A stretch of 11,814 nucleotides of DNA from a virus. Location of the stretch: the UHGV virus genome UHGV-0249779; one strand, 5' to 3'. Numbering within the stretch: position 1 is the stretch's first letter; every line of letters starts with the position of its first letter. The notes beneath the pieces were generated by a model that had not been told where the DNA came from, searched no databases, and was given only the letters and a program-made list of their open reading frames with translations. Below, piece after piece: positions 3,936 to 10,921 of the stretch. Made by a program: the position numbers and the translations under genes.

Positions 3936-4045
3936 AAGTTTTAATTTATACGCTTGCGTATTGATGGTCAAAACACGTTTTGCTATTGATTGGGTTAATG
4001 CGCATTGCTATTATCTATTCATTGTAATACCAATAGGAATTGATA
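3936..4045. promoter_or_regulatory. Divergent immunity control region (OR operators, PR and PRM)
   Basis: PR candidate on the plus strand: -35 TTGATT (3986..3991), 17-nt spacer, -10 TATTAT (4009..4014). Three palindromes: TACGCttGCGTA (3949..3960), CAAAACacGTTTTG (3969..3982) and the perfect AATGCGCATT (3997..4006) inside the PR spacer. PRM -10 TATAAAT lies on the minus strand at 3950..3944. Confidence 0.6.
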
Positions 4046-4273
4046 ATGACAAATCAAACCATTCAACTCGCAATCAGTATTACAGGTAGTCAAAAACGAC
4101 TGGCAGATCTCTGCGGTGTAGCCCAACCCACGGTTTGGCGTTGGCTACACGGTGGCGGAATTGATGCCCGCTATGTAATGAAAATTGTCTCAGCCACTGG
4201 TGGAAAGATTAAACCAGCAGATATTCGTCCCGACCTCGCACCATTGTTTAACGTGAGTAATTCTTCCGCCTAA
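4046..4273 (+). CDS. cro: Cro-like HTH regulator (YdaS/DUF1019-like)
   Basis: 75 aa from the ATG at 4046, with AGGAA 8 nt upstream; the track's 4040 start is a TTG. The pattern QKRLADLCGVAQPTVWRW...ATGGKIKPADIRPDL resembles YdaS-type Cro proteins. First gene rightward of PR. Confidence 0.75.
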   Translation: MTNQTIQLAISITGSQKRLADLCGVAQPTVWRWLHGGGIDARYVMKIVSATGGKIKPADIRPDLAPLFNVSNSSA

Positions 4274-4303
4274 TCTGCGGAGTTAACTGATAAGGCAATT
4301 ACT

Positions 4304-4843
4304 ATGCAACCAATTACATACCAACAGACTAGCGGATTTATCCCGACTGCGGTGATAAATCGTTCTCAAATAAAACAGGTGCCAGGCCACGAAAAAATCC
4401 GTGATGCCGTCCGCGCCTGGTCGGCTGCAGATAATCAGGATGTCGTTGCCGCACTCATTGTGAATGAGTATCGAGCACAGGGCGGCGGCACTATCGATTT
4501 TCCTGATGATGTCAGTCGTGCACGCCAGAAGCTGTTCCGCTTTCTCGATAACAAATTCGATTCTGAAAAATACCGAAATAACGTGCGTGAACTGACTCCA
4601 GCAATTCTGGCAGTACTACCGCTGAAATATCGCGGCCACCTGGTTGAGCAGGATAGCTTCATGGCTCGGCTGGCTGAAATGGAAAAGGAACTCAGTGAGG
4701 CAAAACAGGCTGTCATTCTCAACGCACCACGCCACCAGAAACTGAAGGAGATGAGTGAAGGCATTGTGTCGATGTTTCGTGTGGACCCGGATCTGGCTGG
4801 TCCATTAATGGCGATGGTGACCACCATGCTGGGGGCAATATGA
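4304..4843 (+). CDS. CII-position regulatory protein, YdaT-like
   Basis: 179 aa. Motifs NEYRAQGGG and LTPAILAVLPLKYRGHL match my recollection of Rac-prophage YdaT. Position is directly after cro and before the replication genes. Confidence 0.6.
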   Translation: MQPITYQQTSGFIPTAVINRSQIKQVPGHEKIRDAVRAWSAADNQDVVAALIVNEYRAQGGGTIDFPDDVSRARQKLFRFLDNKFDSEKYRNNVRELTPAILAVLPLKYRGHLVEQDSFMARLAEMEKELSEAKQAVILNAPRHQKLKEMSEGIVSMFRVDPDLAGPLMAMVTTMLGAI

Positions 4844-4929
4844 CAGGTTCAGAAATGGCGAAAGTCGGTCTGCGGGAACAGAACCGACTTTCAGGTGCAA
4901 ATCGTAACACACTCATTGCGGGAGGAATT

Positions 4930-5859
4930 ATGGCAAACACTGCTGAGATATTCAATTTTCCAGTGCCGGATGCGGCACAAAAGGAGCCGCGCGTGGCAGA
5001 TCTCGATGATGGTTATACGCGCATTGCAAATGAGTTGCTGGAAGCTGTGATGCTGGCCGGATTAACACAGCACCAGCTTCTGGTCTTCCTGGCTGTCATG
5101 CGCAAAACATATGGCTTTAATAAAAAACTGGATTGGGTGAGCAACGAGCAACTGTCCGAATTGACCGGGATATTGCCGCACAAGTGTTCTGCTGCAAAAA
5201 GTGTTCTGGTAAAGCGTGGGATTTTGATTCAGAGCGGGCGGAATATCGGTATTAATAATGTGGTCAGTGAATGGGCAACATTACCCGAATCAGGTAAGAA
5301 AAATAAAGTTTACCTGAAAGAGGTAAATTTACCTGAATCAGGTAAGAAAAGTTTACCCAAATCAGGTAAAGGCGTTTACCCGAATCAGGTAAACACAAAA
5401 GACAAACTAACAAAAGACAATATAAAACCTTTTTCGTCCGAGAATTCTGGCGAATCCTCTGACCAACCAGAAAACGATCTTCCTGTGGTGAAACCAGATG
5501 CTGCAATTCAGAGCGGCAGCAAGTGGGGGACAGCAGAAGACCTGACCGCCGCAGAGTGGATGTTTGACATGGTGAAGACCATCGCGCCCTCAGCCAGAAA
5601 ACCGAATTTTGCAGGGTGGGCTAACGATATCCGCCTGATGCGTGAACGTGACGGACGTAACCACCGCGACATGTGCGTGCTGTTCCGCTGGGCATGCCAG
5701 GACAACTTCTGGTCCGGTAACGTGCTGAGTCCGGCCAAACTCCGCGACAAGTGGACCCAGCTCGAAATCAACCGAAACAAGCAACAGGCTGGCGTGACAG
5801 CCGGCAAACCAAAACTCGACCTGACGAACACTGACTGGATTTACGGGGTGGATTTATGA
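4930..5859 (+). CDS. O: Replication initiator O (mosaic: distinct N-terminal iteron-binding domain, lambda-identical C-terminal P-interaction domain)
   Basis: Start preferred at ATG 4930 (GGAGG upstream; MANTAEIFNF aligns with lambda O MTNTAKILNF). The C-terminal roughly 110 aa (SKWGTAEDLTAAEWMFDMV...DWIYGVDL) match lambda O from recall. The track ORF extends to 4840. Confidence 0.9.
   Translation: MANTAEIFNFPVPDAAQKEPRVADLDDGYTRIANELLEAVMLAGLTQHQLLVFLAVMRKTYGFNKKLDWVSNEQLSELTGILPHKCSAAKSVLVKRGILIQSGRNIGINNVVSEWATLPESGKKNKVYLKEVNLPESGKKSLPKSGKGVYPNQVNTKDKLTKDNIKPFSSENSGESSDQPENDLPVVKPDAAIQSGSKWGTAEDLTAAEWMFDMVKTIAPSARKPNFAGWANDIRLMRERDGRNHRDMCVLFRWACQDNFWSGNVLSPAKLRDKWTQLEINRNKQQAGVTAGKPKLDLTNTDWIYGVDL
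5281..5393. repeat. Replication origin iterons: five 18-bp direct repeats, each an internal inverted repeat (TTACCyrAAtCAGGTAAr)
   Basis: Copies at 5281..5298, 5310..5327, 5329..5346, 5353..5370 and 5376..5393, inside the O coding sequence as in ori-lambda. The sequence differs from lambda's iterons. Confidence 0.85.
5394..5440. other. AT-rich DNA-unwinding region of the origin
   Basis: An A-rich tract (cacaaaagacaaactaacaaaagacaatataaaacctttttcg) immediately right of the iterons, matching the lambda ori layout. Confidence 0.6.
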
Positions 5860-6557
5860 AAAACATCGCCGCACAGATGGTTAACTTTGACCGTGAGCAG
5901 ATGCGTCGGATCGCCAACAACATGCCGGAACAGTACGACGAAAAGCCGCAGGTACAGCAGGTAGCGCAGATCATCAACGGTGTGTTCAGCCAGTTACTGG
6001 CAACTTTCCCGGCGAGCCTGGCTAACCGGGATCAGAACGAACTGAACGAAATCCGCCGCCAGTGGGTTCTGGCTTTCCGGGAAAACGGGATCACCACAAT
6101 GGAACAGGTTAACGCAGGAATGCGCGTAGCCCGTCGGCAGAATCGACCATTCCTGCCATCACCCGGGCAGTTTGTTGCATGGTGCCGGGAAGAAGCATCC
6201 GTTATCGCCGGACTGCCAAACGTCAGCGAGCTGGTTGATATGGTTTACGAGTATTGCCGGAAGCGAGGCCTGTATCCGGATGCGGAGTCTTATCCGTGGA
6301 AATCAAACGCGCACTACTGGCTGGTTACCAACCTGTATCAGAACATGCGGGCCAATGCGCTTACTGATGCGGAATTACGCCGTAAGGCCGCAGATGAGCT
6401 TGTCCATATGACTGCGAGAATTAACCGTGGTGAGGCGATCCCTGAACCAGTAAAACAACTTCCTGTCATGGGCGGTAGACCTCTAAATCGTACACAGGCT
6501 CTGGCGAAGATCGCAGAAATCAAAGCTAAGTTTGGGCTGAAAGGAGCAAGAGCATGA
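5856..6557 (+). CDS. P: Replication protein P (DnaB helicase loader)
   Basis: 233 aa, near-identical from recall to lambda P (MKNIAAQMVNFDREQMRRIANNMPEQYDEKPQVQQ...). ATGA overlap with O. Confidence 0.95.
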   Translation: MKNIAAQMVNFDREQMRRIANNMPEQYDEKPQVQQVAQIINGVFSQLLATFPASLANRDQNELNEIRRQWVLAFRENGITTMEQVNAGMRVARRQNRPFLPSPGQFVAWCREEASVIAGLPNVSELVDMVYEYCRKRGLYPDAESYPWKSNAHYWLVTNLYQNMRANALTDAELRRKAADELVHMTARINRGEAIPEPVKQLPVMGGRPLNRTQALAKIAEIKAKFGLKGARA

Positions 6558-9838: not shown

Positions 9839-10921
9839 TTAGAACTGGTAAACCATACCTACAGCAACGATATCATCGGTAGCAACGCCAGATGCTTTCG
9901 TGAAATCGCTCTTATCAATCAGGTTGATTTTGTAGTCAACAAAAGTGGACATATTTTTGTTGAAGTAATAGGTTGCACCTACATCAACATATTCAACCAG
10001 GTCCTGATCACCCCAAACACCCAAGTCTTTTCCTTTAGAATGCAGGTAAGCAACGGATGGACGCAGGCCGAAGTCGAACTGATATTGTGCAACAGCTTCG
10101 AAGTTTTGTGCTTTGTTGGCAATATGGTTATTACCAAAAACAGTCATGTTCTGGGTTTCAGAATAGGTGGTGGCCAGATAGATGTTGTTCGCATCATATT
10201 TCAGACCAGCTGCCCATACTTCAGCATTTTGACCAGAAGCATTCAGACCGTTGTTACCGTAGATAACCTGATTATTAGTGCGATCAGATTTAGCATAGGT
10301 TGCACCCACGCCGAATCCTTCATACTCATAAGTAGTTGAGAAACCGAAACCATCGCCATTAGCTTCAGTTACTTCATTTCGGTCATTTTTGCCCTGATAC
10401 TGAGCTGCAAAGTTCAGGCCATCAACCAGACCAAAGAAGTCGTTGTTACGATAAGTTGCAACACCTGTGGTGCGACCAGTCATGAATACATCTGTTTGGG
10501 TCCAGGTATCGCCACCGAATTCTGGCAGAACGTCGGTCCATGCACCGATGTCGTATGCTACACCGTAGTTACGGCCGTAATCGATGGAGCCGTAGTCACC
10601 GAATTTCAGGCCAGCGAAGGCAAGACGGGTTTTATCTTTGGAGGAACCTTGAGATTCAGCGCGGTTGCCTTTGAATTCATATTCCCACTGACCGAAACCA
10701 GTCAGTTGATCGTTGATTTGGGTTTCACCTTTGAAGCCAAGACGGGCATAAGTAGTATCACCATCATCTGCATCATTAGAGGAGAAGTAGTGCTTAGCAT
10801 TAACTTTCCCGTACAGATCCAGCTTGTTACTGTCTTTATTATAAATTTCAGCTGCCTGAGCAGACATCGCCATCAGTACTGATGCAGCTACAGCAGAAAT
10901 TGCCACTGTTAATTTTTTCAT
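9839..10921 (-). CDS. nmpC: Outer-membrane general porin of the OmpC/OmpF family, prophage-borne (NmpC/Lc type), apparently intact
   Basis: 360 aa. Signal peptide [23 protein letters not shown] followed by AEIYNKD...; C-terminal ...VGMVYQF with terminal Phe; a beta-barrel-like alternating aromatic/Gly composition. Location between Q and the holin, antisense, matches DLP12 nmpC and the PA-2 lc gene. Confidence 0.9.

Follow-up and report, generated by a model that had tools for sequence, protein, structure and literature searches.

Positions 4930-5859 of the window (by which we mean the whole stretch of viral DNA analysed, 11,814 nucleotides or 11.8 kb) encode an initiator of the lambda O type that has its origin inside its own gene: the protein carries a Phage_rep_O domain, and the gene contains an array of iterons followed by an A/T-rich tract. 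Downstream lies a gene for a lambda-type P. The features of the locus are listed below, each with the evidence used to assign it.

4930..5859, + strand: gene O, replication initiator of 309 aa (ORF translation, Pfam, homologues)
4990..5274, + strand: predicted N-terminal origin-binding domain, residues 21-115 of O, of a non-lambda specificity type (Pfam, about 41% identity to lambda)
5281..5297, no strand: accessory iteron TTACCCGAATCAGGTAA, lying 29 bp upstream of the core array (repeat searches, relatives)
5310..5326, no strand: core iteron 1, TTACCTGAAAGAGGTAA, the copy singled out as deviant by the original prediction (spacing, arm conservation)
5329..5345, no strand: core iteron 2, TTACCTGAATCAGGTAA, perfectly palindromic about its central base (repeat searches, relatives)
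5353..5369, no strand: core iteron 3, TTACCCAAATCAGGTAA (repeat searches, relatives)
5376..5392, no strand: core iteron 4, TTACCCGAATCAGGTAA (repeat searches, relatives)
5394..5433, no strand: A/T-rich tract of the origin, opening with ACACAAAAGACA (composition, anchored comparison)
5434..5859, + strand: lambda-type C-terminal domain of O, presumed to bind P (identity to lambda)
5436..5463, no strand: lambda-type imperfect inverted repeat GTCCGAGAATTC-TGGC-GAATCCTCTGAC (10 of 12 positions complementary)
5856..6557, + strand: gene P, lambda-type loader of the host DnaB helicase (Pfam Phage_lambda_P, identity to lambda P)
4927..4955, - strand: promoter-like TTGAAT-17-CATAAT over the start codon of O, at the position of the lambda oop promoter p_o (consensus scan)

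The Phage_rep_O domain (PF04492) spans residues 21-115 of O, with an E-value of 1.4e-34 and a score of 118.9 bits against a cut-off of 28.7 (Pfam). Databases frequently annotate a longer O of 339 aa that starts at 4840, and the 309-aa and 339-aa forms are both present in public collections. The start at 4930 is the likelier one, because relatives have in-frame stops 3-54 nt 5' of the equivalent ATG, together with a GGAG ribosome-binding site; the 339-aa annotation is probably 30 codons too long. A sequence search of the PDB returned no solved structure matching O at E-values up to 0.01, and the single-sequence AlphaFold2 model of the protein was unusable (pLDDT 40, pTM 0.26).

The division of O into an N-terminal and a C-terminal part was first inferred in the late 1970s from hybrids of lambdoid phages that differed in replication specificity. 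Of the two parts of lambda O, the N-terminal one binds DNA, each iteron being bound by a dimer of O, and the C-terminal one binds P; a flexible linker connects them (PMC6022878). In the protein encoded in the window, the C-terminal domain has its homologue in the part of lambda O that binds P, and a homologue of lambda P adjoins it downstream. The start of P overlaps the stop codon of O, and the protein (Phage_lambda_P domain, E = 5e-62, Pfam) is identical to lambda P at 228 of 231 residues (99%), as anticipated by the original prediction of a lambda-type P at this place. The region shares with lambda the gene order (cII-like, O, P, ren), the Phage_rep_O domain, and an origin embedded in O. 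The gene upstream of O is 65% identical to cII of phi80. The promoter-like site over the start codon of O lies where p_o is located in lambda (PMC6022878); it is a weak match to the consensus, of which about one is expected by chance. A scan of 4700-5600 for an oop-like terminator found none, and since the hairpin at 4862-4893 has a tail of only three Ts, we claim no oop-like RNA. Scanning the whole 11.8-kb window against Rfam gave zero matches.

Five iterons had been predicted within O, and both their number and their coordinates are borne out by an exact search: the pattern TTACC-N7-GGTAA occurs at five sites in the gene and nowhere else in the 11.8-kb window, with start-to-start spacings of 29, 19, 24, and 23. 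When the 18-mer of the original prediction was searched with up to three mismatches, four of the five iterons were recovered (in five matches, two of them overlapping at 5328/5329), and the same search on 200 shuffled sequences gave no match, so that chance would be expected to yield none. The repeats encode a stretch rich in Lys, Ser, Gly, and Pro between the two domains, and might be taken for a peptide linker that is selected at the protein level and has no function in an origin. We consider this very improbable. The iterons do not share one reading phase but fall into two, which yield different peptides (LPESGK/LPKSGK in one, VYLKEV/VYPNQV in the other), so that the repeated unit is the DNA and not the peptide, and every copy is palindromic. 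Of the 40 columns that make up the core iteron arms, 39 are invariant in a set of 13 distinct sequences drawn from 9 genera, whereas the adjacent codons vary (the mean entropy is 0.30 in the centres and 0.62 in the spacers). Invariant arms between variable spacers show that it is the arms of the DNA palindromes on which selection acts. The position, number, and spacing of the repeats and the A/T-rich tract that follows them also mirror ori lambda, where the iterons are annotated as binding O.

The four-repeat core is spaced 19-24-23 in the window, a spacing fixed in all 13 distinct relatives, and 20-24-23 in lambda; in both cases the core is succeeded by ACACAAAAGACA, then by an A/T-rich tract, and then by an inverted repeat. 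The 47 nt at 5394-5440 contain 68% A+T, against 53% in the whole window. Behind the last iteron, ACACAAAAGACA is found in lambda, 933W, and P22 as well as in the type of the window and the TTAGC type described below, and is thus common to origins with differing iterons. The inverted repeat at 5436..5463 is near-identical to the equivalent stretch of lambda and 933W, which we take to belong to the right side of ori lambda. The iterons themselves are different: those of lambda are of the form TCCCTC-N5/6-GAGGGA, against TTACC-N7-GGTAA here, and the window has one extra repeat upstream. No lambda-type iteron (TCCCTCAAAACGAGGGA) is found in the O gene of the window, which sets it apart from the lambda/434/21 specificity group; the O of the deposited phage 21 genome is identical to that of lambda, and ori lambda iterons are annotated in the 434 record. 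The origin of this very common type of prophage can be annotated as 5281-5463.

The two parts of O stand at very different distances from lambda. Over residues 1-168, O shows about 41% identity to the lambda protein and has a linker that is 10 residues longer, whereas 139 of the 141 residues at 169-309 are identical. The original prediction had described the N-terminal part and the iterons as differing from lambda and the C-terminal third as lambda-type. The first statement stands (about 41% identity in amino acids, 53% in DNA), as does the assignment of the C-terminal part, although the lambda-type portion extends over about 46% of O and not a third. At the DNA level, identity to lambda is 53% at 4930-5393, 77% at 5394-5440, and 95.7% at 5441-5859, so that it climbs from 53% to 96% over some 40 nt. 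The chimera thus includes the origin itself, in which the iterons are non-lambda but the A/T-rich tract behind them is lambda-like and the inverted repeat lambda-type.

Such a contrast could have arisen without recombination if O had diverged vertically, its front half evolving rapidly under selection for specificity and its back half being held in place by the interaction with P. The halves of the protein do face different functional constraints, and all the O proteins that we compared have a recognisable common N-terminal fold family. Yet the silent sites are also nearly unchanged in the 3' part: only 18 of 419 nt differ from lambda, against an identity of 53% in the 5' part, and just 2 of these 18 differences change an amino acid. 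Differential constraint on the protein cannot therefore explain the jump in identity. Moreover, in other genera at least three unrelated back halves are found attached to this front half, and SfI, 933W, and 434 have the lambda-type back half behind other front halves. Taken with the reciprocal mosaic of a Klebsiella phage (GZ7, below), these observations leave vertical divergence with hardly any credibility. By all these comparisons O is a mosaic at the level of its domains, produced by recombination within the gene, as the original prediction had it.

An anchored alignment narrows down the point of exchange. Relatives that share the front half follow the window as far as about 5423, while lambda and the Stx phage 933W agree with it from 5434 onward. 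The alignments place the exchange zone at about 5406-5433, in the A/T-rich tract to the right of the iterons, where the DNA codes for residues of the linker (approximately 159-168). The conserved ACACAAAAGACA plausibly provides a patch of common sequence for crossovers. In 933W, the lambda-type C-terminal half and P are shared with the window (95% DNA identity from 5393 onward), and extra proximal iterons have likewise been added to a four-repeat core, making an origin of six iterons; its front half and its six iterons are, however, of the lambda type. GZ7 shows the opposite combination: its O is 80% identical to that of the window over residues 1-164 and has the same five-iteron array, but is unrelated thereafter, and the next gene encodes an IstB/DnaC-like loader. 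The mosaic in the window is an old and very common allele, and not a junction specific to this stretch of DNA.

Within the array, the iteron at 5310 had been noted for its centre, which is GAAAGAG whereas the other copies have GAATCAG or AAATCAG, and had been tentatively labelled an inactive or spacer copy. The difference is real (GAAAGAG versus GAATCAG), but comparison with the relatives points away from that label. Set beside the four-repeat arrays of relatives and of lambda, 5310 is the first repeat of the core and, by position, the counterpart of iteron 1 in lambda. Its arms vary no more across the 13 sequences than those of the other repeats, and an A-rich centre (GAAAGAG or GAAAAAG) is found at this position in 10 of the 13, in several genera. 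The arrays of Xenorhabdus, Pantoea, and Providencia consist of four repeats spaced 19-24-23 and lack the copy at 5281. The latter has counterparts only in relatives from E. coli, Klebsiella, Enterobacter, Pseudocitrobacter, and Kluyvera, three of which have mismatches in the arms; to the arrays of E. coli, Klebsiella, and Enterobacter it adds a single repeat, 29 bp before the core. The number of repeats varies further, up to seven in Arsenophonus and nine in Kluyvera. Judged by this pattern of conservation, 5310 is a member of the conserved core and not debris, and 5281 is an accessory copy, restricted to some lineages and more variable.

These assignments are in line with a precedent from Stx phages with six iterons: in vitro, O bound only four of the six efficiently, and it was the extra proximal ones that it bound poorly (PMC7466680); we treat 5281 as accessory on this ground also. 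The same precedent shows that not every repeat of an array need be occupied (PMC7466680), which, with the two central positions at which 5310 is unlike the other four copies, leaves some room for a decayed, non-functional or spacer copy at 5310 and an origin made of the four consensus copies alone. We find this unlikely. The repeat occupies the first core position in every relative, at a lambda-like spacing, its arms are conserved while the flanking spacers vary, and the A-rich centre recurs in 10 of the 13 sequences. The iterons of lambda also vary in their centres, and the poorly bound repeats of the Stx phages, being the extra proximal ones, correspond to 5281 rather than to 5310. Granted that 5310 belongs to the core, its A-rich centre might even have a specialised role, e.g., as a site of lower affinity that orders or gates the assembly of the initiator complex, an idea that we hold as doubtful but conceivable.

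The distribution of the front half was assessed by scanning residues 1-164 against one genome per species, which gave 30 loci. Among the relatives at least 52% identical over the matched N-terminal stretch, 13 of 15 carry TTACC-N7-GGTAA in their O gene, whatever their C-terminal half; the two exceptions (L019 and L021) match residues 1-117 only. In both of these, a T5orf172 domain is inserted in O. The relatives with the iterons come from Klebsiella, Enterobacter, Pseudocitrobacter, Kluyvera, Xenorhabdus, Pantoea, Providencia, and Arsenophonus. Relatives that are 44-50% identical have TTAGC-N7-GCTAA repeats instead, and lambda, phi80, and P22 each have a repeat type of their own. The front-half domain type and the TTACC-N7-GGTAA type thus co-occur across 9 genera.

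What follows this front half is far less constant. In GZ7 and in prophages of Enterobacter, Kluyvera, Xenorhabdus, Pantoea, and Providencia, the front half is 64-83% identical to that of the window and the core spacing is the same, whereas the C-terminal halves are unrelated; Pantoea alone has a lambda-like back half with P after it, and is more diverged. The gene after O encodes lambda P, an IstB/DnaC-like AAA+ protein, a Toprim and DnaB-like primase-helicase, or a DUF6475 protein. A gene of the lambda P type occupies this place in Pantoea and Arsenophonus. In the latter (L022), the C-terminal half of O resembles the type that precedes DnaC-like genes, yet the next gene is P-like, so that C-terminal types and partners are not paired strictly one to one.

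Among well-studied phages, the closest front half is that of P22 gp18 (47% identity), with no similarity past residue 165 or so. Four repeats of about 20 bp lie inside P22 gene 18 (PMC8022706). Their arms are TTACC/GGTAA-like and they are followed by the same ACACAAAAGACA, but in two of the repeats, as we read them, the gap between the arms is smaller by about 2 bp. In its C-terminal half gp18 is unrelated to the O of the window, and its partner is a DnaB-type helicase (gene 12) and not P; in its iterons, its C-terminal half, and the helicase, the window differs from the gene 18/gene 12 module of P22. The gp15/gp14 pair of phi80 resembles the window in having four annotated binding sites inside the initiator gene and a lambda-related C-terminal half. 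Its gp15 is, however, diverged over its whole length (42% amino acid identity, with DNA identities of about 49% for the 5' and 60% for the 3' part), and its iterons are TTCCCGAAAACGGGAA-like. Aligning O with the initiators of other phages had been proposed as the way to place the junction; the phages fall into one that is the same as lambda (21), one that differs throughout (phi80), and lambda itself, against which the junction falls at about 5406-5433.

We conclude, with a probability of roughly 90%, that a lambda-like E. coli prophage has its working replication module at this locus, with a two-domain O and a chimeric origin inside its gene. The sequences themselves show the anatomy of the locus, the abrupt switch in identity, the association of this domain type with this iteron type in several genera, and the conservation of the iteron arms as DNA; from the homologies, we infer that O binds the origin, unwinds it, and recruits P and DnaB. 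The N-terminal Phage_rep_O domain would bind, as dimers, the 17-bp TTACC-N7-GGTAA iterons that lie in the DNA coding for the linker, the array being made up of the four-repeat core at 5310-5392 and the accessory copy at 5281. By analogy with lambda, binding of O would build a nucleoprotein complex that destabilises the A/T-rich tract at 5394-5433, and the C-terminal domain would recruit the lambda-type P in complex with the host DnaB helicase. In evolutionary terms, the front half of O and the iterons form one travelling cassette, and a second is made up of P, the C-terminal domain, and the right arm of the origin; the two are exchanged in the conserved A/T-rich tract that lies between them.

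The allele is widespread. Phage PhiR30_1 has an O gene 100% identical to that of the window, and 14 other deposited phages have one at 97-98.5% identity, under the annotation replication protein O; over most of the window, the match to these phages is 95-97%. Of 5426 complete E. coli genomes, 2368 (approximately 44%) carry the allele at full length, and the front half is found in 2297; the exact 309-aa protein is found on 445 contigs, and its cluster at 90% identity has 7825 members. Such abundance in chromosomes, where many prophages are defective, would also fit an inert remnant in a defective prophage. This seems improbable to us, as O, P, and the adjacent early genes are intact ORFs, and the allele is 97-100% identical in 15 deposited phages that we take to be replication-competent. 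The reading as a working module is the one that we retain. The allele is already known and catalogued as replication protein O, and there is no substantive novelty in its discovery here. The significance of the locus is small beyond its correct annotation, the design of lambda-family O proteins with two swappable domains having long been established. The TTACC-N7-GGTAA iteron is printed in no paper that we found, in a search whose reach lay outside the primary literature of 1978-81.

The cassette of front half and TTACC-N7-GGTAA iterons may represent a distinct and experimentally uncharacterised group of replication specificity. If so, this would be the commonest group among the lambda-like prophages of E. 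coli, and one that joins at least four helicase-recruitment modules across enterobacteria. The set of relatives also offers a clean natural dataset on which residues go with which iteron specificity: all the proteins with TTACC-N7-GGTAA iterons have L82, H84, and S91, and those of every other iteron type have different residues at these positions. The three lie in the segment LPHKCSAAKS (residues 82-91), a predicted recognition segment that would fit a recognition helix.

The number of iterons in O origins is plastic. Nine repeats occur in the O gene of Kluyvera sichuanensis (locus L012:2852-3059, in the coordinates of that locus), where a 48-bp two-repeat unit is reiterated, and seven in that of Arsenophonus nasoniae (L022:2912-3069). 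The partner gene is not always predictable from the C-terminal type of O, because the Arsenophonus locus (L022:2471-4158) has an O whose C-terminal half resembles the type preceding DnaC-like genes, but the next gene is a homologue of lambda P. In two relatives, O contains an in-frame T5orf172 domain (PF10544, E 7e-8), placed after the origin-binding domain and ahead of the linker. T5orf172 is related to GIY-YIG nucleases.

O homologues with an in-frame T5orf172 domain:
L019:2501-3622, Enterobacter sichuanensis
L021:2501-3604, Klebsiella grimontii

These two genes contain no iterons of the TTACC-N7-GGTAA type. In origins of four different iteron types, the last iteron is immediately followed by ACACAAAAGACA, a 12-mer, or by a close variant of it (5394-5405 in the window and the equivalent positions in loci L002, L005, L006, L007 and L028). 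This 12-mer is a candidate unwinding element common to these origins, and also a candidate patch for crossovers.

In public annotations, those of phage PhiR30_1 and of E. coli M8 (RefSeq), O begins at 4840 and is 339 aa long. The 30-codon extension (4840-4929) is probably an annotation artefact: in homologues from other genera, the ATG corresponding to 4930 is preceded, at a distance of 3-54 nt, by in-frame stop codons, and there is a GGAG ribosome-binding site. The start codon and the genes before it include the following features of the window:

4040-4273, YdaS-like gene in the cro position
4304-4843, 179-aa protein, 65% identical to phi80 cII, with a match to Pfam YdaT_toxin
4862-4893, GC-rich hairpin with a tail of only 3 T, downstream of the promoter-like site on the minus strand
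4927-4955, minus strand, promoter-like site TTGAAT-17-CATAAT preceded by TG, overlapping the start codon of O

The promoter-like site matches the position of the oop promoter in lambda. A terminator scan of 4700-5600 returned no terminator, and an Rfam scan of the whole window gave no match. The upstream neighbours of O (4040-4843), the YdaS-like and phi80-cII-like genes, are not of lambda type, so that the affinities of the immunity region differ from those of the replication region.

A further gene lies directly after that of the Q antiterminator:

9839-10921, minus strand, general porin of 360 aa (Pfam Porin_1, E 4e-152)

In the matching prophage of E. coli M8, the porin gene is followed by the lysis gene essD. 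The porin gene looks like lysogenic-conversion cargo, as it does in the matching phages.
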